The notes below the pieces were generated by a model that saw nothing but the letters and a program-made list of their open reading frames with translations, was not told where the DNA came from and made no database searches. A stretch of DNA of 24,000 nucleotides from Methanolobus zinderi (GTDB lineage: Archaea; Halobacteriota; Methanosarcinia; Methanosarcinales; Methanosarcinaceae). The stretch lies in assembly GCF_013388255.1 (NCBI RefSeq), contig NZ_CP058215.1:2137332-2161331 (forward strand). Direction: 5' to 3'. Both the position numbers and the translations under genes were made by a program. Of the stretch, positions 6,287-18,680 are shown piece after piece; within the stretch, counting starts at the first letter, position 1, and each line of letters starts with the position of its first letter.

Positions 6287-7237
6287 ATGTTAAAAAATTC
6301 CAAAATCTACATCGCAGGCCACCGTGGAATGGTAGGCTCGGCCATAAAAAGAAACCTTGAATCCAGAGGTTACACAAACCTGCTACATCGCACCCACAGT
6401 GAACTTGACCTGACAGACCAGTGGCAGGTAAATGAGTTCTTCGAGTCTGAGAAACCAGAATTTGTCTTCCTTGCAGCCGCAAAAGTTGGTGGGATACTTG
6501 CAAATAGCACATATCCTGCCCAGTTCATATACGAGAACCTCATGATCGAGGCAAATATCATCAATGCAGCTTATAAGTACAATGCCAAAAAACTGCTTTT
6601 CCTTGGTTCATCCTGCATCTATCCTAAATTCGCACCCCAGCCCATGAAAGAAGAATACCTACTTACCGGAGAACTGGAAGGAACAAATGAAGCTTACGCC
6701 ATAGCCAAAATTGCCGGAATCAGGTTGTGCAAGCATTACAACCAGCAATATGGTACCAATTTCATGTCCGTGATGCCCACAAATCTCTATGGTCAGAATG
6801 ATAACTTCAATCTTGAAACATCCCATGTAATGCCCGCACTTATACGTAAGTTCCATGAAGCAAAAATAAATGCTAAACCAGAGGTAGTAATCTGGGGAAC
6901 AGGCTCCCCAAAACGTGAATTCCTTCATGTTGATGACATGGCTGACGCGTGTATATATCTCATGGAGAACTATGATTATTCAGATACTGCTGAATTTGTG
7001 AATATAGGCACGGGAAAAGACCTTTCCATTAAGGAACTTGCAAAGATGATCAAAGATATCGTGGGATACAAAGGAGAGATTGTCTATGATCGCACAAAAC
7101 CTGACGGGACTCCACGCAAATTATTGGATGTAAGCAGGCTCCATGGACTCGGATGGAGAGGGAAGATAACCTTACGGGAAGGCATTGAACAGACCTACAA
7201 ATGGTACCTCGATAACCACAAAGATAAAAGGAGCTGA
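6287..7237 (+). CDS. fcl: GDP-L-fucose synthase (GDP-4-keto-6-deoxy-D-mannose 3,5-epimerase/4-reductase)
   Basis: '[15 protein letters not shown]' is the Rossmann motif. 'LGSSCIYPK' and 'YAIAKIAG' give the SDR catalytic S/Y/K context. The length of 316 aa is typical of Fcl/WcaG. Confidence 0.88.
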
Positions 7238-7272
7238 GTTCCATAAGTGGCACCAATGACTCGAAAGTTTCC

Positions 7273-8001
7273 GTGATAACTGCCTGTTTCAATAGCGAGC
7301 AGTTTATTGAAGAGACGATTCAAAGTGTCCTGGATCAAAGCTATCCAGACATAGAATACATAATAGTAGATGGCAGATCTTCCGATGGCACCATGGAGAT
7401 CGTAAAGAGATACGAGGACAGTATCTCAAAGATTATCAGTGAGCCTGATGAAGGTGTTTACGACGCAATGAACAAAGGGATTCAGAATTCTACAGGAGAT
7501 ATCATATATTTTCTGAATTCCGGTGATCATCTCCACAGCAAAGACACTATCAGCAATGTCATTGAAATGTTCTCAGATGATTCTGTTGTTACGGTCTATG
7601 GAAATGTCAGGATGATCGGGCAGGACGGACAAAAGAAGAATGTAAGGGGTTGCAGGGTAACATTGAACAGCCTGCTCTACCGGCGCATCTGCCACCAGGC
7701 ATTGTTCGTCCGAAAGGAACTTTTCGACGAGCTGGGTCTTTTTTCTTTGGAACTTAAACTCTCGGCAGATCATGAATTCATAGTCCGGGCATTCAAAAAG
7801 TATCCCCATGGCCTGATATATATGGACAAAACACTAGCTGAGTACAGAGACGACGGCATGAGTTGCAGGCAGATGACAAGAACAAAAATCGAGGATCTGG
7901 GCATAATTGCGAAAAATTATGATCGAATACATCATCTCTTTGGCGCGATTATTTGTGGTATCGTGATATTGAAATACAAAATCAAGGCATTTATATCTTG
8001 A
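7273..8001 (+). CDS. Glycosyltransferase family 2 (start codon uncertain, see findings)
   Basis: 'ITACFNSEQFIEETIQSVLDQSYPDIEYIIVDGRSSDGT', 'DEGVYDAMNKGI' and 'FLNSGD' are GT2 (GT-A) signatures. GTG at 7273 is the only canonical in-frame start. The conserved N-terminal strand continues upstream of it. Confidence 0.75.
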   Translation: MITACFNSEQFIEETIQSVLDQSYPDIEYIIVDGRSSDGTMEIVKRYEDSISKIISEPDEGVYDAMNKGIQNSTGDIIYFLNSGDHLHSKDTISNVIEMFSDDSVVTVYGNVRMIGQDGQKKNVRGCRVTLNSLLYRRICHQALFVRKELFDELGLFSLELKLSADHEFIVRAFKKYPHGLIYMDKTLAEYRDDGMSCRQMTRTKIEDLGIIAKNYDRIHHLFGAIICGIVILKYKIKAFIS

Positions 8002-8037: not shown

Positions 8038-9183
8038 ATGAATATTCTGGTAATTCCAACCACTGACTGGATAAAGCATCCTGTCCCTAATAGACTGAAC
8101 TTTATCTTTGATAAGATTGCACAAAAACATAACGTTCATGTCATCTATTTCAGGCTGAAGAGATTCGAGAACCAGACTCCGAGAAAAACAAAATGCAAGC
8201 TGCATGATGTGACTCTTTTCAATATGGATGACCCTTCCTCATACTATCTTGCCAACAGTTTTTTTCATTTTTACAAACTGTACAGCATCATAAAGAAGGA
8301 AAATATCGATGTGATAGTTTCTGCCAACATATTGCCTGCCTTTTTAGCGAATTTCGTGAAAGGAAGTAAACCTATAATCTTTGATTATCTGGACCATTAC
8401 GAGGAATCGGCTGCTACATATTATCCAGATACTTTCTTCGGGAAGATAGTCAAAGGAGGTGTGAGGTCCATAATACGATACAACCTTATAAAAGCAGATT
8501 CTGTCATAACGGTAACTCACGAGTTTAAACGATTCCTCAACTCAGTAGGTGCCCGTGACGTGCATGTGATTCCAAACGGAGTGGATACATCTGTTTTTGA
8601 ACAGCTTGATACTGAAGAAGCTAAAATGAGTCTTGGACTTGAAGGCAATGTTATCGGCTATGTAGGCTCACTTGAGTACTGGGTCGACCTGGAAACGGTG
8701 ATCGAGGCACTTCCTGAGCTTGACGTTAAATTGCTTATTGTAGGACCTGGCTTGTTTACTGATTATGGAGAAAAGATAAAAGAACTTGCAGAAAAGCTGG
8801 ATGTAATCGACAAAATCATATTCACAGGCAGAGTTGAGTACGATCAGCTTTACAGATATATCTGTGCAATGGATATCGGGCTGAATCCCCTGAAGCACGT
8901 GAAGAAAAATGAGATAACTGTGGGGGGAAAAGTGTTCAATTACCTTGCATGCGGGAAACCTGTGCTAACAAGCAGGATGACTGCCCTTGAAAATCTTCTT
9001 GGTGATAGTCTTTTCTACTATGACGACAAGTATACATTTGCAAAAATAGTCAGACAAATTCTGAAAAAAGATACCGAAAATGAAAAATATATTGAAATTG
9101 CCAAAAAATATGACTGGAAAAACATTGCAGAGGAATACGAGGAAAGGTTGTTTATCGCTGCAGTAAATGAAGACAATACATGA
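8038..9183 (+). CDS. Glycosyltransferase family 4-like (GT-B)
   Basis: N-terminus 'MNILVIPTTDW', central 'VIGYVGSLEYWVDLETVIEA', and C-terminal 'GGKVFNYLACGKPVLTS', consistent with an archaeal GT1/GT4-type fold. Confidence 0.75.
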   Translation: MNILVIPTTDWIKHPVPNRLNFIFDKIAQKHNVHVIYFRLKRFENQTPRKTKCKLHDVTLFNMDDPSSYYLANSFFHFYKLYSIIKKENIDVIVSANILPAFLANFVKGSKPIIFDYLDHYEESAATYYPDTFFGKIVKGGVRSIIRYNLIKADSVITVTHEFKRFLNSVGARDVHVIPNGVDTSVFEQLDTEEAKMSLGLEGNVIGYVGSLEYWVDLETVIEALPELDVKLLIVGPGLFTDYGEKIKELAEKLDVIDKIIFTGRVEYDQLYRYICAMDIGLNPLKHVKKNEITVGGKVFNYLACGKPVLTSRMTALENLLGDSLFYYDDKYTFAKIVRQILKKDTENEKYIEIAKKYDWKNIAEEYEERLFIAAVNEDNT

Positions 9184-9240
9184 GACTTTATGAAATGCTA
9201 ATTTTTAAACACAATAATATTCTTGATAATGGGTGCAACT

Positions 9241-11754
9241 ATGGAGAATAACAAACCGGACAGAGATATAAAAAGCCAGATAAAAAACAGCTGGCCTTAC
9301 ATGGTCCTGATTTCATTTATAGCACTTGTTGCTTTTTACATAAGAATCAGACCATCAGAAAGTGTGTTCATATCCGAGGACTTCATCAGGTTCGGGGGCA
9401 ACGACCCCTGGTATCATATGCGTATGGTATACACTCTCCTTGAAAATTATCCTCGCGGCATGTTCTATAACCCGCTTACGAATTATCCTTCAGGCAGTTA
9501 CATCCATTTTGGCCCGCTTTTTGACCAGATGATAGCTTTCGTAGTAATGATTATAGGAGCAGGCAGCCCGGGCACAGAACTTGTAAACACCTTCGGGGCT
9601 TATTTTCCTGCAATCCTTGGTGCTCTGACAGTTATACCGGTATATTTTATAGGCAAATATGTCGGTGGTCACAAAACAGGAATAATTGCTGCCTTGCTTA
9701 TCGCTGTAGCACCCGGACAATTCCTTTCGCGCTCGATCATAGGTTTTACCGATCATCATGCTGCAGAAACATTATTTAGTACTCTTTTTATGATGTTCTT
9801 CATGCTTTCTGCGATTAAGGCAAAGGAGAAAGAAATCGGTTTTATTGACTTAAAAAGTAAGGACTGGAAAAAATTGAAGTCACCATTCATACTTGCTGCT
9901 ATAGCGGGTGTTATGTATGCAGCCTTCCAGCTAATATGGCCTGGTGCGCCCTTATTTGGCCTTATAATTGTGATTTTTGCTGCAGTCCAGTATACGATTG
10001 ATCATCTCAATAATAGATCAACCGATTACTTGGGAATGATTGGAATTACAACTTTTCTGATAGGAATGATCCTGATAGCTCCATTCATTCATCCTGAAAT
10101 GGGTGTTTCAACATTCTTTTACTCATGGTTCCATGTAATATCAGCAATTGCAGCAATTGGCGCATTTGTGTTCATGAGTTTACTGCATAAAGAACTCAAC
10201 CGAAGGAAATTCAAACCTTACATGTATCCCATTGTACTGGTTTCCTTACTGCTTGTAGGACTGATATTCACAAGAATAGTGGCACCTTCCATATATTCAT
10301 TGGCAATAGATACTCCGGCTATTATATTCGGGATTAAAACAGGTGGTGCTGCCACAATTGCAGAAGCTTCTTCAATATTCTACTCTGGAGGAAACTTTAC
10401 ACTTCAGAATGTATGGTACAATTTTGCAGTTGGTTTTTACCTGTCAATTATCGCAATGCTTATGCTGGCTTATAGCGTAGCCAGAAAACACAGACCACAG
10501 GAAACACTCCTTCTTGTCTGGAGTTTTTTCATACTACTTGCAATCTACGGACAAAACCGTTTTGCATACTATTATTCAGTGAATGTTGCAATACTCAGTG
10601 CATATTTCGCAAGCAAAATCCTAAATATATCAGGCTGGGAAGATTTAGAAAATGCTTACAACAGAAAGATTCAATCTATAAGCGAAATAGGACCGTTCCT
10701 TAAAAATAATCTCAAAATCCACCATATATTATCACTAGCTTTGATCCTTCTTATTGTTGTATACCCAGGCTATTCTCTGGCAATGCAGCAATCCCAGGGA
10801 ACAGGTGGACCTAATGGATACTGGATAGAATCTCTTTTATGGATGAACGAAAGCACTCCGGATCCTGGAATGGATTTTTATGCAATATATGAGGCACCTG
10901 AAAAAGGAGAGATTTTTGACTACCCCGACTCAGTCTACGGAGTGATGTCCTGGTGGGATTATGGACATTGGATCGAGACAATAGGCCATCGAATACCTAA
11001 CGCCAACCCCTTCCAGGCAGGAATTGGTGGCCGCAGAAACAGCATTGAAGAAGAAAATCAACCAGGTGCTTCAACATTCTTCACAGCCCAGTCTGAAGAA
11101 GAAGCAACCGCAGTCCTTGAAGCGGTTCACCCAGACCCTGATAAGGCAGGTGCACGTTATGTAGTCTCTGACGTTGAGATGGCCACCGGTAAATTCTATG
11201 CTATGTCAGCCTGGACACTTGATACGGATGGGTATTATCAATCAGTTCAAACTAATGCCGGATACCAGTATGTGCCAGGGGAGAGATATTTCAACTCTAT
11301 GGAAGCAAAACTGCACATCTTTGATGGTACTGGTCTGCAGCAGTACCGTATGGTACACGAATCACCCATAGGAAACACCCAGGAACCAGGATATAAGAAT
11401 GTCTATAACGTGCTATACGGAGGCAGCCTGGCGGAGATCAATACGGGATACGTCAAAATCTTCGAGTACGTAGAAGGCGCACAGGTAACAGGCACAGCAC
11501 CCGAAGGTGAGACCGTCACCATCAGCAGCACGATCCGTACCAGCCAGGGACGCACGTTCATTTACTCTCAGTCAGAGACCTCTGATGGAACTTACTCCTT
11601 TACTGTACCATACTCCACAGAAGGTCCGATATCAGGAGAGACACAGTTCGATACCGCACCGACCGGACCTTACACCATAAGCTATGGTGGCACACAGGAA
11701 GAGGTTAGTGTCAGTGAAACAGATGTGCTTGAAGGAAATGTGATAGAGGTTTAA
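9241..11754 (+). CDS. aglB: Archaeal oligosaccharyltransferase AglB (STT3 family)
   Basis: The WWDYG catalytic motif is encoded at 10951-10965. 'NDPWYH' and 'FTDHHAAE' are acidic/metal-binding loops. There are multiple N-terminal TM helices, and 'DVEMATGK' (11170-11193) lies in the DK-motif position. The ORF is open from TTG 9223, with ATGs at 9229 and 9241. I chose 9241 because GGGTG lies 6 nt upstream. Confidence 0.95.
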   Translation: MENNKPDRDIKSQIKNSWPYMVLISFIALVAFYIRIRPSESVFISEDFIRFGGNDPWYHMRMVYTLLENYPRGMFYNPLTNYPSGSYIHFGPLFDQMIAFVVMIIGAGSPGTELVNTFGAYFPAILGALTVIPVYFIGKYVGGHKTGIIAALLIAVAPGQFLSRSIIGFTDHHAAETLFSTLFMMFFMLSAIKAKEKEIGFIDLKSKDWKKLKSPFILAAIAGVMYAAFQLIWPGAPLFGLIIVIFAAVQYTIDHLNNRSTDYLGMIGITTFLIGMILIAPFIHPEMGVSTFFYSWFHVISAIAAIGAFVFMSLLHKELNRRKFKPYMYPIVLVSLLLVGLIFTRIVAPSIYSLAIDTPAIIFGIKTGGAATIAEASSIFYSGGNFTLQNVWYNFAVGFYLSIIAMLMLAYSVARKHRPQETLLLVWSFFILLAIYGQNRFAYYYSVNVAILSAYFASKILNISGWEDLENAYNRKIQSISEIGPFLKNNLKIHHILSLALILLIVVYPGYSLAMQQSQGTGGPNGYWIESLLWMNESTPDPGMDFYAIYEAPEKGEIFDYPDSVYGVMSWWDYGHWIETIGHRIPNANPFQAGIGGRRNSIEEENQPGASTFFTAQSEEEATAVLEAVHPDPDKAGARYVVSDVEMATGKFYAMSAWTLDTDGYYQSVQTNAGYQYVPGERYFNSMEAKLHIFDGTGLQQYRMVHESPIGNTQEPGYKNVYNVLYGGSLAEINTGYVKIFEYVEGAQVTGTAPEGETVTISSTIRTSQGRTFIYSQSETSDGTYSFTVPYSTEGPISGETQFDTAPTGPYTISYGGTQEEVSVSETDVLEGNVIEV

Positions 11755-11790: not shown

Positions 11791-12042
11791 CAGTTAATAA
11801 TGCAGTTCAATAGAATTTCTGGTCAGATGATCAACATAATTCTGGTAAAAACAATTGTCAAACTAATTACAATGCGACCACCCGCCGCAGGCGGCGCGCT
11901 CCTTCGCTGCTGTAACGAAAAATGTTATTCAGTATCCAAACTAGAGACCTTAAAGTTGCAATCGCAGGCTTTTTACAGAGAAACTCATATAGAAATCCTG
12001 TAGAAAAAGTGTTCAAAGGATATTCTGTAGATTATTTTCTTT

Positions 12043-12097
12043 CATCCTGCGGGAAAACGCCGGCTTCGCCGGGCCCTCCGGGATGGTTTGAGTTTTT
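12043..12097 (+). other. GC-rich imperfect stem-loop followed by T5 (terminator-like element or 3' end of a small RNA)
   Basis: Pairings read by eye: CATCC(12043-47)/GGATG(12081-85), GGG(12051-53)/CCC(12074-76), CCGGC(12060-64)/GCCGG(12068-72). TTTTT follows at 12093-97. Confidence 0.3.
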
Positions 12098-12146: not shown

Positions 12147-12155
12147 CTATATAGA
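12147..12155 (+). promoter_or_regulatory. TATA-box candidate for the hacB-type operon
   Basis: cTATATAGa lies about 40 nt upstream of ATG 12192. A GTGAG Shine-Dalgarno-like element sits at 12184-12188. Confidence 0.35.
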
Positions 12156-12191: not shown

Positions 12192-12686
12192 ATGGACAGA
12201 ATAATCAAAGGAAAAGCATGGGTATTCGGGAATGATATCGATACTGACGTCATAATACCCGGGAAATATCTCCGTACCACCGATATGCAGGTATTTGCAG
12301 ACCATGCAATGGAAGGTGTGGATCTGGATTTCTCCAAAAAAGTGCAGAAGGGAGACATCATCGTTGGCGGAGACAACTTCGGATGCGGCTCATCCAGGGA
12401 GCAGGCGCCTCTTGCACTTAAACATGCAGGAGTATCATGTGTTGTGGCAAGGTACTTTGCCAGGATATTCTTCAGGAATGCCATAAATGTCGGACTCCCA
12501 CTTATAGAAGCTGATGTTGAGTGTAAGGAAGGGGACGAGCTCGAAATAGACCTTCTGGAGGGTACTGTGAAAGTGAACGGCAAGATTTACCAAGGAAACA
12601 AGCTTCCTGACTTCCTGCTGGAGATACTCACCGATGGCGGGCTTGTGCCACACAGGAAAAAGTTGCAGAAGCAGGAGAGCGTTTAA
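12192..12686 (+). CDS. hacB: Aconitase-family hydro-lyase small subunit (LeuD family), homoaconitase (HacB/AksE)-type loop
   Basis: '[15 protein letters not shown]' and '[14 protein letters not shown]' are LeuD-family motifs. The specificity loop reads YLRT (12267-12278), as in the M. jannaschii homoaconitase small subunit MJ1271 (R26/T27). The isopropylmalate isomerase MJ1277 has a Val-Tyr-type loop instead. Confidence 0.65.
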
Positions 12687-12695
12687 CTTACACAT

Positions 12696-13550
12696 ATGAT
12701 CTTTCCTGACGAATATAAGTACGTGGGAATGAGCAGGGCCATTCCGGAAGATGCTGACGACAAGCGAATCTATTTTCTTACTCAATACCTGATCGTAGAG
12801 GACACAGTGGATGATGTGGAAAAATATTCCCTGTACAGTGTGGAAAATACTGGTGAGCAGCTTTTAAGAGATGTGGACAATCTTGAGATGATTGCCTCAG
12901 GTGAAGAGATAATCCGGTATGATAAAGAACTCAATATCAAGGATCGTACACTTCTGATTGAAACCGCGCATAAGCTGTGTAAAGGAAAGGTCAATACTGT
13001 GATATTCACAGGTATAGATAAGCATGTGACCTTTGTTCACAAACCTGACCTCAAAGAGATACTTGACATAGAGATAGTCGATGTGGTGCCTCCTGAGCCC
13101 TCATGGCTGGCAAGTGTTGTCAGAAGACTCGAGGAAAGCGGCATATTCGGAGATCTTACGATCAGGTTCATGGATAATCTTACCGATCTTCGGCAGTTCG
13201 AAGGAGAGAATACAGTCTTTCCATGTTCATCCTCGGGACTGAAAGGAAAGTGTCTTGACTGCGATGTGATAAAAGAGGACGGGTCGCTGCTTGTGGGATG
13301 CGAGATCTCCAGGGAACTGTTCGAATCAAGGTTTCCGGACCTGGAGTATTCATTTATCAATATCTGTCCTTTCAAATCCGATGTATTCAAACCAGCAAAA
13401 TCCTTTATCACCAGGTGCTGCCGCTCGGAAAAGTCAGGTATCGTGACCATCAACGGCATTAAGGGTGCCGTGGTCCACTGGGGTGCATCGGAATTCTATG
13501 TGGCGGACACGATCTGGAAACTTGTTAGGGAGCTGCGGGGAGAGAACTGA
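12696..13550 (+). CDS. Uncharacterised protein, Cys-rich C-terminal third, co-operonic with hacB-type and aksF-type genes
   Basis: The 284-aa ORF has a 9-nt gap to the upstream gene and a 14-nt gap to the downstream gene. It has eight Cys, seven of them between residues 177-242 (FPC, KCLDC, VGC, NIC, RCC). I recognised no family motif. Confidence 0.7.
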   Translation: MIFPDEYKYVGMSRAIPEDADDKRIYFLTQYLIVEDTVDDVEKYSLYSVENTGEQLLRDVDNLEMIASGEEIIRYDKELNIKDRTLLIETAHKLCKGKVNTVIFTGIDKHVTFVHKPDLKEILDIEIVDVVPPEPSWLASVVRRLEESGIFGDLTIRFMDNLTDLRQFEGENTVFPCSSSGLKGKCLDCDVIKEDGSLLVGCEISRELFESRFPDLEYSFINICPFKSDVFKPAKSFITRCCRSEKSGIVTINGIKGAVVHWGASEFYVADTIWKLVRELRGEN

Positions 13551-13564
13551 TCATAGGTGTCAAA

Positions 13565-14575
13565 ATGAAACTTGCAATTGTTGAAGGAGACGGAATCGGA
13601 AAAGAAGTTATTCCCGCGGCGGTCAGAGTACTGGATGCCCTGGAGATGGACGTTGAGAAGGTCTATCTTGAGTTGGGCTATGGCAAATGGGAAAAGACAG
13701 GATCTGCCATTACCGATCAGGACATAGAGATACTCAAAAGCTGTGACTGTATACTCTTTGGTGCTGTGACAACACCTCCTGATCCCAATTACAAGAGTGT
13801 GCTGCTGACGATCCGCAAGGAGCTTGACATGTACGCCAATATCCGCCCCATCAAGCCACTGCCATGTGTGGACTGCAACTTTGAGAGGGAAGATTTTAAT
13901 TTCGTGATCGTGCGAGAGAATACCGAAGGTCTCTATTCAGCAATAGAAGAGATTGGTGAAGATGCCTCATATACAAAGAGGATTGTGACCAGAAAAGGAT
14001 CAAAACGAATAGCTGAATATGCCTGTAAGCTTGCAAAAAGCAGGAAGAATGAACTTACAATAGTCCACAAATCCAATGTTATGAAATCGGACAAGTTGTT
14101 CCTTGATGTCTGCCGCGAAACCGCTTCTGAGCATGAAGTTGAGTACAGTGACGAACTTGTGGATTCGATGGCCTATAAGTTGATGGTCTCCCCTGAAAAA
14201 TTTGATGTGATAGTAACAACGAACCTTTTCGGGGATATTCTCAGTGACATGTCAGGGGCACTTGTAGGAGGGCTTGGACTTCTCCCCAGTGCAAATATAG
14301 GTACAGAGCATGCATTCTTTGAGCCGGTCCACGGAAGTGCACCTGATATCGCAGGAGAAGGGATCGCAAATCCCATCGCAGCCATATTGAGTCTTAAGAT
14401 GTTGCTCGAATGGCATGGGGATATCATGCAGGCAGGTCTTGTGGAGGAAGCTCTGGAATCTTCCCTCAACATGGGAGTTACAACACCAGATCTTGGCGGA
14501 AGTTTCACAACTGAAGAAGTGACAGAGGCCATAGTTGAGCATATAGAAATTAAAATTAGAAACGGGTCTTCCTGA
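13565..14575 (+). CDS. aksF: Isopropylmalate/(homo)isocitrate dehydrogenase family; probably the AksF-type enzyme of 2-oxosuberate synthesis
   Basis: 'IVEGDGIGKEV', 'RENTEGLYS' and 'TTNLFGDILSD' are beta-decarboxylating dehydrogenase signatures. The AksF rather than LeuB assignment rests only on linkage to the YLRT-type small subunit. Confidence 0.55.
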   Translation: MKLAIVEGDGIGKEVIPAAVRVLDALEMDVEKVYLELGYGKWEKTGSAITDQDIEILKSCDCILFGAVTTPPDPNYKSVLLTIRKELDMYANIRPIKPLPCVDCNFEREDFNFVIVRENTEGLYSAIEEIGEDASYTKRIVTRKGSKRIAEYACKLAKSRKNELTIVHKSNVMKSDKLFLDVCRETASEHEVEYSDELVDSMAYKLMVSPEKFDVIVTTNLFGDILSDMSGALVGGLGLLPSANIGTEHAFFEPVHGSAPDIAGEGIANPIAAILSLKMLLEWHGDIMQAGLVEEALESSLNMGVTTPDLGGSFTTEEVTEAIVEHIEIKIRNGSS

Positions 14576-14641
14576 AAGACCTGTTCTAACTGGTTCAATC
14601 CTTTTTCGAAAAGGAAAGATTGGACTTTCTTTTTTCTTTTT
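14564..14641. terminator. Convergent terminator region between the dehydrogenase gene (+) and arlJ (-)
   Basis: Hairpin GGTCTT(14565-70)/AAGACC(14576-81) has the TGA stop in its loop. A second hairpin is TCCTTTT(14599-605)/AAAAGGA(14609-15). T-runs follow at 14630-35 and 14637-41. Confidence 0.5.
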
Positions 14642-16305
14642 CACGTAATTCCAAGCAGTGAAGATACTGCTGCCATTGTTACCACGGCACTTGCTGCTGA
14701 TATCCAGACCATTATAACAAAGTCTATGGTCGCACTGAGCATATGACCACCATCAACCACCCTGATAAGGATCGCAGACATCAGGGAATGACCTACCATG
14801 ATAGCCAGAACCATGTTTGCAAGCAGGTCCATACTTCCTATATTTGTGTAAAGCACCATACCCATTGACATACCAGGAGGCATCTCCACCGCAGAGAACA
14901 TGTCCTGCATCAGTCCCACAACACCCAGCGAGATATACATGGTAAAACCGATACCACCGGTCAGTCCGTAGAGCACACCCACAAGACTGCCTGCGGACTG
15001 GGTCCTTTTCTTCCTAAGAGTGACTATCCTGTGGAAATTGGTTGCAATAATATCGCCAATAACCTCAGGTTTACCACCTAGGTTCGTGGCCTCCACGAAC
15101 ATCACACTGAAACGCTGGATAAGATTGCTTCCCGTATTGGCAGAGAATATCTCCCACGAGGTCATTTTATCGATCCTGGTTACCAGCATCTTGTAAAGGT
15201 TGTTCACATCCTTTGTAAGCGGACCGAAGTCGTGTGCCCTCAGTGCCCTCAGTGCATCATCTATCACACCACCCCTGGCACCTGCAGAGCTTCCAAGGGA
15301 GCGTATAAAAGCAGGGAAGTTCTCGTCTTTTCTTCGTATGCTTTTCTCGATCTTGCGGGCAACATATCCGGTATAGACCAGTGGAGTGAATATCATTGCA
15401 ACTGCTATAGATGTTTCAATCTTGCCATATAGTGTGACAAGCACAGCCACAACAATACAACCTGCTATCGAGATGGGAATGGAACGATACATTTTCAGCT
15501 TGTCACTGGTAAGTAGTTTTGATCTGCTCCATGCAGGATCCTTCGGGATCTTGTTCTTGGTGAAAACAACCATTACCAGATCTGTAAGAAGGAAGACGAC
15601 CACTACTATACCCATTAGAAGTTCTGCGTTCATTCCCGTAATAACCGGCATGATAACCGCAAATGAAGCCATGAAAATCAGTGACATCACCATGGATACG
15701 AAGAGTTCCTTGATGACCTCTACGGCATAGAGAGCACCGTTATACATGGATTCATATTCGTTCATTACAACGTTCTGCTCCGCAAAAAGGAAGGATTTGA
15801 CATCCTCTCCTGACTGGAGTGCATGGGCAAACCTGTCAAGAAAATCCTCGAATATTATGGAAGGTGTTCTCTTTGATATGAACCTGCATCCGTCCGCAAG
15901 ACTGAGGTTCCAGACGGTCACAAGATCATATATTTTCTTTGTCTCTTCCGCAAGTTCCTGATAGTCCTCATTTTCGGAAACGATGCGGATGATATCAAGC
16001 CTTGGAGTCTCTGCAGTTGCGATCGATCCCATCTGGGTAATGTAATAGTGCATGTTGTTATCGATACGGGATGCCTTTGCACCCAGAATTGACAAAGGAT
16101 AGGCGAATGCAAATATGAAACATATTACCGTAACAAGTGCGGGGATGTACTGTGCCGGACCAACAAAGAGAGTCGGGAGAAGGACATACATGAGTAAGGC
16201 AAAGAAAATACCAAACCCGATGATGGGCAAAGCAAACTTCTTGAGATAGGCTTTTGGCTCCATCCCCAGATTCTTGAATGCCTTCTCATAACTCACAGAA
16301 CTCAC
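14641..16305 (-). CDS. arlJ: Archaellum membrane platform protein ArlJ (FlaJ)
   Basis: A 554-aa polytopic membrane protein with large cytoplasmic loops. It is the last gene of the arl operon, directly after the ArlI ATPase. The GTG start abuts the arlI stop. Confidence 0.9.
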   Translation of the reverse strand: MSSVSYEKAFKNLGMEPKAYLKKFALPIIGFGIFFALLMYVLLPTLFVGPAQYIPALVTVICFIFAFAYPLSILGAKASRIDNNMHYYITQMGSIATAETPRLDIIRIVSENEDYQELAEETKKIYDLVTVWNLSLADGCRFISKRTPSIIFEDFLDRFAHALQSGEDVKSFLFAEQNVVMNEYESMYNGALYAVEVIKELFVSMVMSLIFMASFAVIMPVITGMNAELLMGIVVVVFLLTDLVMVVFTKNKIPKDPAWSRSKLLTSDKLKMYRSIPISIAGCIVVAVLVTLYGKIETSIAVAMIFTPLVYTGYVARKIEKSIRRKDENFPAFIRSLGSSAGARGGVIDDALRALRAHDFGPLTKDVNNLYKMLVTRIDKMTSWEIFSANTGSNLIQRFSVMFVEATNLGGKPEVIGDIIATNFHRIVTLRKKRTQSAGSLVGVLYGLTGGIGFTMYISLGVVGLMQDMFSAVEMPPGMSMGMVLYTNIGSMDLLANMVLAIMVGHSLMSAILIRVVDGGHMLSATIDFVIMVWISAASAVVTMAAVSSLLGIT

Positions 16306-17964
16306 CTATACTACAAACGGAAGACCGTCCACACCATGCTTATAGAAATTCACGATTATCTCAAGCACATCATAATAATCATCGATACCGCGTGAGCGCA
16401 TCTCATCAAGTATCCTGGCTCTGAGGAAAAGATCCTGATATATCAGTCTCTTGTCCTCATAACCGAGTTTTGTTGCGATCTTGTTCTCAAGGATGAAACT
16501 GTTGTTCAGACCCCTGAAGTTATGTGTGTCAGTCTCCGGGTCCCACTGGAACACGGCCCTGGTGACAACTCCACCAACTTCCTCATAATATCCTTCTATC
16601 TCCTCAATCGCAAGACAGCGCCTCAGGAACTTACCCTTACGATAAACCGCAGACAATATCATTGCCACATTCAGGTTATCTATGAAAGTCACGGGAACAT
16701 TGATGGGATCTGCCGTCAGACGCTGGATCATCTTGGTGACAGCAGATGCGTGAAATGTAGCCAGTACAGGGTGTCCTGTCTGCATACCCTGAAAAGCCAC
16801 ATTACCTTCGGCTCCTCGAATCTCACCAACGATAATGTAGTTCGGCCTTGAACGCAGTGCAGCCTTGAGCAGAGCAAATGTATCCACCCTGGAATCGGGT
16901 GGTCCCTCCTCACGGGTGATAAGCTGCTGCCACACAGGTTGCGGTGGCTGGACCTCTGCCGTATCCTCTGCTGAGAATATCTTTGCCTTCGGGTTAACAA
17001 AGGAAAGACATGCATTCAGCATTGTGGTCTTACCACTTGCTGTCTCGCCACTGAAGAAGACACTCATGCCGTTCTCAAGACACATCCACATGTAAGCTGC
17101 CATTTCAGGGCTCAGCGCACCCCAGTTGATAAGCTGGATGATACTTACGGGCACCTCACTGAATTTACGCATGGTAAAACTGCTACCACGCCTACTGACA
17201 TCTATACTGTAAATGATGTTAATACGGGAACCATCAGGAAGAGCACCGTCGGCTATGGGGCGGGCATCACTGACCGGACGTCCGATACGCTCACTCATAC
17301 TCCTGAGCCAGTCATCCAGTCCCTGCTCATCCCCGAAAGTGAGGTTTGTCTTCACAGTATCGAAAATCTTGTGGACGATAAAGACATTATCCACACCGAT
17401 ACTGCTGATATCCTCAAGGTACGGGTCCCTGATGATAGGCTCGATCGGACCGGAGCCGATGATATCTCTCTCAATATGATAGAGGATCTTGTTGTACTCG
17501 TTCTGGGTCATCGGCACTTTCTTCTGGACAGGCATCAGTTTCTGGATTATATCGAACTTCCCTGCTACCTCCTCATCCATGCTGCCACCAGAACCCACAT
17601 CCACTGAATCGTTGAGAAGCTTGGTGATCAGGTCCTTTAGTTCTGATTCGGATTCGGGAACCGGTTCCAGAGAGGATTTTTCCAGGATTATACTCAGGAC
17701 AGCATCATATTTCTTCTTTTCAAGCCCGTTCAATAATGGTTCAATACCATAATACCGGACCTCTCCAAGTTCGGCTGTACCGTAAAGATGAATGAAGACA
17801 GGGTCTCCCACAGGTAAAATTATATTGACGTTTTCCGAATCAATGTCCTTGGACAGACTTACCATGAATGTTGGTTCATCGGCGTCGTTTTCTTTCATGA
17901 ACTTCCTGACATAATCACCAAGATGCGGATTTCTCTGTATGGCTTTCTCAAATTCCTGATCCAT
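16306..17964 (-). CDS. arlI: Archaellum motor ATPase ArlI (FlaI), type II/IV secretion ATPase family
   Basis: Walker A 'GETASGKTT', 'IIVGEIRG' (Asp/Walker B box) and 'TGHPVLATFHA' (His box). The length of 552 aa and the operon position fit ArlI. Confidence 0.93.
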   Translation of the reverse strand: MDQEFEKAIQRNPHLGDYVRKFMKENDADEPTFMVSLSKDIDSENVNIILPVGDPVFIHLYGTAELGEVRYYGIEPLLNGLEKKKYDAVLSIILEKSSLEPVPESESELKDLITKLLNDSVDVGSGGSMDEEVAGKFDIIQKLMPVQKKVPMTQNEYNKILYHIERDIIGSGPIEPIIRDPYLEDISSIGVDNVFIVHKIFDTVKTNLTFGDEQGLDDWLRSMSERIGRPVSDARPIADGALPDGSRINIIYSIDVSRRGSSFTMRKFSEVPVSIIQLINWGALSPEMAAYMWMCLENGMSVFFSGETASGKTTMLNACLSFVNPKAKIFSAEDTAEVQPPQPVWQQLITREEGPPDSRVDTFALLKAALRSRPNYIIVGEIRGAEGNVAFQGMQTGHPVLATFHASAVTKMIQRLTADPINVPVTFIDNLNVAMILSAVYRKGKFLRRCLAIEEIEGYYEEVGGVVTRAVFQWDPETDTHNFRGLNNSFILENKIATKLGYEDKRLIYQDLFLRARILDEMRSRGIDDYYDVLEIIVNFYKHGVDGLPFVV

Positions 17965-17984
17965 TCAACCGCCTTCCTCAATAA

Positions 17985-18680
17985 TCATGATACCGAAGCT
18001 ATCTCTACAACGAGCCCGACCTTTGGTTCTATCCTGAAACCTATCATCTGACCCACCGGACCCTTGGCCCCGGTGAATTTGTTGACCACAATCGTACGCT
18101 TTACCTCACTTCCCAGAGGCCTTGATTTGAGAGTTATGTAGACGTCACAGGACGACCTGAACATTGCAGCGATATCCTCACTGAGCTGATTTGGCTCGAT
18201 CGTGAGTATGATGACCTTTCCCATACCATTGAGCTTTTTAAAAAAGGATATCAGGTCAAGGCTTTTTTCGGTATTTGCACTGTATTTTATCAAAGATGAG
18301 ATCGTGTCTATAACTATCACGTTCTTCTCGAAGAGCTCTTCAGCAGCCATTAATCTCTCAAGGAAATCAAAACGTGATTTTGCAGCCTGTACAAGGGGAA
18401 TTACCGGAATGTACAGCAGGTTACCGTTCAGAAGGAAAGGCGCTATCGGATAGTCCATGGAATACATCTGGTTTATGAAACCCTTTGTTGTCAGTTGAGT
18501 GGAGACAAAGGTAACACTCACTTCATTCTCATTCAGACCATATGCCAGCCGCTGGGTGATCGAACTCTTGCCACCGCCGCTCCCTCCTTCTATCACCACA
18601 AGGGAGCCTGCCGGGAATCCTCCACCAAGCTTATCGTTGAGCTCGTCTCTTGCTACTTGAAAAGAATAGATCTTTGCCAT
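17985..18680 (-). CDS. arlH: Archaellum KaiC/RecA-like ATP-binding protein ArlH (FlaH)
   Basis: Walker A 'GGSGGGKS' and Walker B-like strand 'NVIVIDTISSL'. The protein is 231 aa and lies between arlG and arlI. A GGAGG element precedes the ATG. Confidence 0.9.
   Translation of the reverse strand: MAKIYSFQVARDELNDKLGGGFPAGSLVVIEGGSGGGKSSITQRLAYGLNENEVSVTFVSTQLTTKGFINQMYSMDYPIAPFLLNGNLLYIPVIPLVQAAKSRFDFLERLMAAEELFEKNVIVIDTISSLIKYSANTEKSLDLISFFKKLNGMGKVIILTIEPNQLSEDIAAMFRSSCDVYITLKSRPLGSEVKRTIVVNKFTGAKGPVGQMIGFRIEPKVGLVVEIASVS

Follow-up and report, generated by a model that had tools for sequence, protein, structure and literature searches.

The window analysed here is a stretch of 24,000 nucleotides from the complete 2.70 Mb genome of the archaeon Methanolobus zinderi (contig NZ_CP058215.1, positions 2,137,332 to 2,161,331, forward strand). 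It contains three genes arranged head-to-tail on the plus strand: hacB, a gene for a protein of the DUF7714 family, and aksF (Table 1). The three open reading frames and the gaps of 9 nt and 14 nt between them are exactly as claimed in an earlier reading of the window from its letters (the sequence-only reading). The hacB/DUF7714 junction reads TAA-cttacacat-ATG, and the DUF7714/aksF junction reads TGA-tcatAGGTGtcaaa-ATG with a Shine-Dalgarno-like AGGTG inside it. Judged by this spacing, the genes are likely co-transcribed. The unit belongs to the biosynthesis of coenzyme B (CoB, 7-mercaptoheptanoylthreonine phosphate), and the DUF7714 protein is the best current candidate for the missing thiol-forming step of this pathway.

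Table 1. Features of the hacB-DUF7714-aksF unit. Positions are those of the window; the TATA-like box and the T-rich stretch were read from the sequence.
Feature	Position (nt)	Strand	Description
TATA-like box tatataga	12148-12155	+	~40 nt 5' of the hacB ATG
hacB	12192-12686	+	164 aa; homoaconitase small subunit, CoB 2-oxoacid elongation pathway
YLRT substrate-specificity loop	12267-12278	+	Y26-L27-R28-T29 of the small subunit
DUF7714 protein	12696-13550	+	284 aa; XcbA-like, predicted to be a redox enzyme with Fe-S; candidate for thiol formation in CoB synthesis
Invariant Cys177 (P-C motif)	13224-13226	+	34/34 deep orthologues, 79/81 superfamily representatives, 143-sequence alignment
Invariant Cys202 (G-C motif)	13299-13301	+	Deep orthologues, superfamily representatives, 143-sequence alignment
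Invariant Cys224-Pro225 (NICP motif)	13365-13370	+	Deep orthologues, superfamily representatives, 143-sequence alignment
Invariant Cys241-Cys242 (RCC motif)	13416-13421	+	Deep orthologues, superfamily representatives, 143-sequence alignment
H261-W262-G263 motif	13476-13484	+	HWG is the mark of the hac/aks-linked clade, PWG that of XcbA-type proteins
aksF	13565-14575	+	336 aa; homoisocitrate-type (threo-isohomocitrate series) dehydrogenase, CoB pathway
T-rich intergenic stretch	14600-14640	+	Between aksF and a convergent archaellum gene

The sequence-only reading had found no motif to place in the 284-aa middle protein. This no longer holds, since the protein fits the PF24830 (DUF7714) profile over its full length with 327.3 bits (E 8.7e-98, residues 1-279 on profile positions 1-279 of 280; gathering score 25 bits) and is also matched by NF052538, the NCBIfam model of the XcbA family. 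It has eight cysteines. Seven of them are concentrated at residues 177-242 (nt 13224-13421), as had been claimed, in the contexts FPC (C177), KCLDC (C186 and C189), VGC (C202), NIC (C224) and RCC (C241 and C242), while the eighth is C95. Five of the seven clustered cysteines are invariant, together with P225 and W262-G263, across 143 diverse sequences. The expectation that the cluster is conserved did not hold for the KCLDC pair, which, like C95, is lineage-specific. An additional cysteine at position 7 is common elsewhere in the alignment, and the Methanosarcinaceae have tyrosine there.

An AlphaFold2 model built on the 143-sequence alignment reached a mean predicted local distance difference test score (pLDDT) of 95.5 and a predicted template modelling score of 0.88. 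It superseded a poor run on 12 close sequences (pLDDT 73.6, and below 60 in the cysteine region). Neither a sequence search of the PDB nor Foldseek returned a significant relative (best E 0.05, TM-score at most 0.22), therefore no function can be transferred from the fold.

The function can be approached through XcbA. In Xanthobacter autotrophicus Py2, this protein, whose [2Fe-2S] cluster has a potential of -372 mV, carries out the final step of the bacterial pathway to coenzyme M (CoM), the reduction of sulfoethanethioaldehyde. Those who described it could name no homologue with an assigned function (Wu et al. 2022; PMC9457059). The DUF7714 protein of the window matched NF052538 over residues 14-278 with 78.4 bits, short of the curated cut-off of the model, and the score was equal in the whole-genome search. 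When deep DUF7714 orthologues were compared with 40 distant representatives by hhalign, the probability was 100% (E 2.2e-54) over 264 columns with all five cysteines aligned. All 40 of these representatives matched the XcbA model (best E 5.7e-141). The superfamily is small, since a profile search of 1.84 billion representative proteins returned just 145 clusters. The tree sets the hac/aks-linked proteins apart from the XcbA-type proteins, in a clade of their own (support 1.0) that has 100 HWG members and no PWG member. On these comparisons, DUF7714 is an archaeal sister family of bacterial XcbA, and the window protein is a new, pathway-specific relative that stands outside the XcbA family as curated.

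The two families share homology over their full length, a size of about 285-300 aa, the five invariant cysteines and the C-P and W-G motifs. They may also meet in chemistry, as the reduction of a thioaldehyde to a thiol on a methanogenic-type cofactor, known like the redox-active [2Fe-2S] cluster for Xanthobacter XcbA alone, is what 7-mercaptoheptanoate needs. Further differences lie in the setting and in the substrate. XcbA is encoded with the xcbB-E genes of CoM synthesis, whereas DUF7714 is archaeal and stands among hac/aks genes of CoB synthesis; the window and about 100 related loci have hac/aks neighbours and not xcbB/comA or xcbC-E. The substrate of XcbA is a C2 sulfonate, while that of DUF7714 is presumed to be a C7 carboxylate.

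XcbA-type relatives are also present in Methanomassiliicoccales, other Thermoplasmata and Chloroflexi. Two Thermoplasmata/Methanoplasma loci and one Chloroflexi locus of this type had neither xcbB-E nor hac/aks linkage, so the role of these copies is not indicated. In the Chloroflexi metagenome-assembled genome, the neighbours of the XcbA-type gene encode a NadA paralogue and a radical S-adenosylmethionine (SAM) protein (L150:6048-9074). We rejected this radical SAM protein as a counterpart of the one found near CoB genes (see below), as the similarity was generic (E 0.009). Divergent DUF7714/XcbA-like copies of 25-28% identity (L143, L144 and L145; genomes G380 and G355), two of them in one genome, were found in a family with divergent multi-copy methyl-coenzyme M reductase (MCR). 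They had no hac/aks linkage and fell outside the HWG clade.

Next, we consider whether the flanking genes belong to the CoB pathway or to leucine synthesis. The YLRT loop of the small subunit is present where the sequence-only reading had placed it, and work on Methanocaldococcus jannaschii reportedly established that this loop distinguishes homoaconitase from isopropylmalate isomerase. The small subunit scored 226 bits against TIGR02087. Among the equivalog models its best match was HacB2_Meth (NF040625) with 220.2 bits, yet under the cut-off of 230 bits of the HacB models (NF040625/NF040604), and the leuD model gave 187.8 bits against a cut-off of 245.85. The dehydrogenase scored 318 bits against PF00180 and 457.3 bits against the subfamily model TIGR02088, above its cut-off of 409.8. 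AksF models (NF040626/NF040619) were used along with TIGR02088, and the top equivalog was AksF2_Meth with 360.3 bits, below its cut-off of 540.

The rest of the genome helps in this assignment. Small subunits of the archaeal LeuD type, Iso_dh dehydrogenases and large subunits of the LeuC/HacA type are each encoded twice in the genome, and an aconitase once. The second small subunit has YLIL at the loop position and leuD as its best model, and the dehydrogenase adjoining it passes the model of LeuB, 3-isopropylmalate dehydrogenase (416.7 against a cut-off of 393). In other orders, the neighbours of orthologues of the window pair are a homocitrate synthase of the AksA type and a large subunit of the HacA type. 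Essentially all small subunits linked to DUF7714 carry YLRT, the exceptions being one YLRS and one HLRT. The separate YLIL LeuD and LeuB pair, the top HacB2 and AksF2 equivalogs and the hacA/aksA-linked orthologues thus bear out the view that the flanks are a CoB set and not LeuD/LeuB. They belong to the same families as HacAB (MJ1003/MJ1271), AksF (MJ1596) and AksA (MJ0503) of M. jannaschii, including the YLRT loop. M. jannaschii differs in that its hac/aks genes are scattered and DUF7714 is absent, while in the window and in related orders hac/aks genes are clustered with DUF7714.

The linkage of the middle gene to hacB and aksF, on which the sequence-only proposal depended, is conserved. 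The order hacB-X-aksF, where X is the middle gene, was found again in some 100 loci spanning at least 12 taxonomic families, and the arrangement is therefore not due to chance. Among the 80 Methanosarcinaceae loci whose flanks are covered, nearly all have hacB-DUF7714-aksF. Methanosarcina has an insert of 0.7-3 kb between DUF7714 and aksF (L062-L119), which is absent from Methanolobus, Methanococcoides and Methanomethylovorans; in one locus (L064) the product of the insert is a membrane protein of 186 aa (7000-7560). Elsewhere in the phylum, families have one of three gene orders, hacB-DUF7714-aksF, hacA-hacB-DUF7714-aksF or hacA-hacB-aksF-DUF7714, and their DUF7714 proteins are 31-51% identical to that of the window; the two arrangements with hacA are met even at 31-40% identity. 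The gene follows aksF and not hacB in two families, and in one family (f17) it lies about 5 kb from hacA-hacB-aksF. Methanoregulaceae are among the linked families, and Methanoculleus and other Methanomicrobiales also carry DUF7714. Since the genes beyond the block are not common between families, the linkage is selective.

In six families the unit is part of a larger block, mmp11 - radical SAM - TPP enzyme - aksA - hacA - hacB - DUF7714 - aksF, where TPP stands for thiamine pyrophosphate. The product of mmp11 is methanogenesis marker 11 (TIGR03280, TiaS-like), and the TPP protein is related to IOR-alpha. Both proteins are candidates for other missing steps of CoB synthesis. In the genome of M. 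zinderi, the TPP gene directly follows the marker 11 gene outside the window (1835661-1839654), so this pair is kept together even where the block is dispersed.

Several further observations concern this block. In M. zinderi, the marker 11 protein scores 361 bits. The IOR-alpha-like TPP protein of 513 aa reaches 315 bits, where the IorA cut-off is 651, and no IorB partner accompanies it. Methanogenesis marker 12 follows the pair on the opposite strand. Marker 11 and TPP genes join the aksA-hacA-hacB-DUF7714-aksF block in Methanomicrobiales-type genomes, and two tandem marker 11 paralogues are often also found 5' of the TPP-aksA-hacA-hacB-DUF7714-aksF block in six families. The radical SAM protein of the block has about 322 aa and a weak LipS2-like match of 60 bits (L124-L139, e.g. 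L128:1245-3166). M. zinderi carries two unlinked copies of it, at about 425287-426249 and at 1385057-1386031.

The distribution of DUF7714 was all-or-none by taxonomic family, with 178 of the 401 sampled genomes of the phylum positive, and every DUF7714-positive family was also McrA-positive. Among the control genomes, Methanosarcina acetivorans was positive, while M. jannaschii and Haloferax volcanii were negative. The sequence-only reading had asked whether the family is restricted to CoB users. The hac/aks-linked clade was indeed found only in MCR-carrying families, but DUF7714 is not universal among organisms which use CoB. One MCR-positive genome without DUF7714 (G011) has a contiguous aksA-hacA-hacB-aksF cluster, which means that the elongation enzymes do not need DUF7714. 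The genes flanking that cluster (SufBD, an ABC ATPase, radical SAM proteins and GatCAB) include no obvious replacement.

No methyl- or alkyl-coenzyme M reductase works without CoB, so that nearly all biological methane formation depends on it, as does the anaerobic oxidation of methane and alkanes. The early 2-oxoacid elongation steps of its synthesis have long been known. For 2-oxosuberate decarboxylation, thiol installation, threonine attachment and phosphorylation, however, we know of no identified enzymes. Labelling work by R. H. White is said to have shown that 2-oxosuberate is converted to 7-oxoheptanoate, in which the aldehyde oxygen is replaced by sulfur before reduction to the thiol. 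Our literature search returned no paper on "DUF7714" and none that assigns a function to a DUF7714 protein. According to a 2025 study of MMP16, COG1900 enzymes may take part in the CoB pathway, which "is still unknown" (PMC12068725), and another paper mentions CoB biosynthesis for MA4615 only (PMC11619418).

In the mechanism that we favour, the known elongation of the 2-oxoacid chain to 2-oxosuberate is carried out by AksF and by HacB with an unlinked HacA. By homology to XcbA, four of the five invariant cysteines of the DUF7714 protein would hold an Fe-S cluster, which is probably [2Fe-2S]. The protein would then act on 7-oxoheptanoate in its sulfur-bearing form, the thioaldehyde 7-thioxoheptanoate or an equivalent adduct, and reduce it to 7-mercaptoheptanoate, a substrate suggested by the pathway context, in parallel to the reduction of sulfoethanethioaldehyde to CoM by XcbA. 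We propose this since the sole characterised relative performs such a reduction and DUF7714 is embedded in CoB genes. We give the reading of the DUF7714 protein as the Fe-S reductase that forms the thiol of 7-mercaptoheptanoate a probability of roughly 0.5. The sequence-only reading had put forward a co-transcribed metal- or Fe-S-like protein as a candidate for a late CoB step. None of the conditions under which it would have fallen (flanks of the leucine pathway, no conserved linkage, unconserved cysteines, wide occurrence outside CoB users) spoke against it when examined, and the homology to an experimentally shown [2Fe-2S] thioaldehyde reductase lends strong support to its Fe-S guess, the function itself being one that we infer.

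Several observations weigh against the proposal. The match to the XcbA model stays below its cut-off of 150 bits, and the window protein has HWG in place of the XcbA-type PWG. DUF7714 was not found in several McrA-positive families of the phylum (f10, 5/5; f13, 35/54; f14, 3/4; f20, 3/3; and part of f6), nor in M. jannaschii, and such MCR-positive organisms must therefore make the CoB thiol in another way. Moreover, an M. acetivorans double mutant without MMP16 and L-ASST (the L-aspartate-semialdehyde sulfurtransferase) was unobtainable even with CoM, from which the authors infer a role of COG1900 enzymes in CoB synthesis (PMC12068725). If so, the CoB thiol step could already have its enzymes. 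DUF7714 and the COG1900 enzymes may also divide the work between them or be redundant.

MMP16/ComF and L-ASST, the COG1900 enzymes in question, resemble the proposed DUF7714 enzyme in that they perform, or are proposed to perform, an analogous archaeal conversion of aldehyde to thiol for CoM, homocysteine and possibly CoB, and in that they depend on metal or Fe-S (PMC12068725). They have no sequence relation to DUF7714, and Pfam and NCBIfam scans of the DUF7714 protein found no COG1900 family. They are present in class I methanogens, which are without DUF7714, and are unlinked to hac/aks in the loci examined.

Of the alternatives, the one that survives best is that DUF7714 serves a different late CoB step, for example sulfur delivery, the conversion of 2-oxosuberate or, as a redox partner or ferredoxin-like carrier, the support of a COG1900 sulfurtransferase. 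We consider it unlikely, though it has points in its favour. DUF7714 sits in the same CoB cluster in either case, the COG1900 enzymes suspected in CoB thiol formation (PMC12068725) require electron input, and the cluster of XcbA has a low potential (PMC9457059). However, at 284 aa, with its CC pair conserved and a large domain apart from the cluster, the protein resembles an enzyme more than a simple carrier. No COG1900 gene was linked in the loci examined, and the block already has the TPP enzyme as a candidate for the decarboxylase.

Next in likelihood, and doubtful as well, is that DUF7714 acts on the CoM branch or on both thiol cofactors and converts sulfoethanethioaldehyde (from sulfoacetaldehyde and sulfide) to CoM. 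This would extend what XcbA, the only characterised relative, does on a CoM precursor, and XcbA-type relatives occur in Methanomassiliicoccales, which need CoM too. An MMP16 deletion mutant was CoM-auxotrophic only without sulfide (PMC12068725), thus a sulfide-dependent CoM bypass exists, and DUF7714 could be this backup route in M. acetivorans lacking MMP16. The authors, however, credit the backup to L-ASST (PMC12068725). In the lineages examined, DUF7714 linkage runs to hac/aks and never to CoM genes, and its clade is separate from the XcbA-type proteins with the motif changed to HWG.

The sequence-only reading had also offered an assembly factor for the Fe-S hydro-lyase. A Cys-rich product encoded directly 3' of hacB could well help to mature, repair or stabilise HacAB, the [4Fe-4S] homoaconitase, but we find this improbable. 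The aksA-hacA-hacB-aksF cluster of the MCR-positive genome manages without DUF7714, as does HacAB of M. jannaschii. The paralogous LeuCD has no such partner, the gene follows aksF instead of hacB in two families, and the homologue XcbA is an enzyme without a hydro-lyase partner. Least probable of all is that the linkage reflects another 2-oxoacid-derived metabolite or that DUF7714 has a function unrelated to CoB, for although the f30 copies and some divergent f36 copies lack hac/aks linkage in the stretches examined, elsewhere the linkage is kept over deep divergence and the distribution is limited to MCR-bearing families.

The DNA around the unit was also inspected. The TATA-like box is a putative promoter of the three genes, and the T-rich stretch is likely their terminator region. 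The spacer 5' of hacB has 437 nt, begins after an AglB-like gene and is AT-rich apart from palindromes; the GC-rich palindromic stretches are ccgccgcaggcggcg and gccggcttcgccgggccctccggg, at 11870-11900 and 12050-12085 (+). The AglB-like gene (9223-11754, +) encodes an 843-aa membrane protein with a WWDYGHW motif, similar to AglB/STT3 oligosaccharyltransferases, and is preceded by a glycosyltransferase-like open reading frame (8038-9183, +). Further Methanosarcinaceae loci likewise have it 5' of hacB (cluster c13). Three archaellum-component-like genes (14641-18680, -), judged by their translations alone, are convergent with aksF. Their products are a polytopic membrane protein of 554 aa, a secretion-ATPase-like protein of 552 aa whose Walker motif reads GETASGKTT, and a RecA/KaiC-like ATPase of 231 aa.

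With these results, an anonymous DUF becomes the subject of a specific, bench-testable hypothesis that builds on a homologue with known biochemistry, and the genes clustered with it supply a few candidates for the remaining missing CoB steps. Since the confidently predicted fold has no solved relative, a structure would be informative for XcbA and DUF7714 alike. We put forward a wider reading more tentatively. DUF7714 may be the missing CoB thiol enzyme (7-mercaptoheptanoate synthase or 7-thioxoheptanoate reductase) in Methanosarcinales, Methanomicrobiales, anaerobic methanotrophic archaea and related archaea, with the block naming the remaining late pathway. If this is true, the IOR-alpha-like TPP protein would be the 2-oxosuberate decarboxylase, the TiaS-like marker 11 an ATP-dependent threonine ligase or kinase, and the radical SAM protein would act in the pathway too. 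DUF7714 may then also supply the sulfide-dependent backup CoM synthesis of MMP16 mutants. If the role of DUF7714 is confirmed, it would provide a methanogen-specific enzyme target for methane mitigation.

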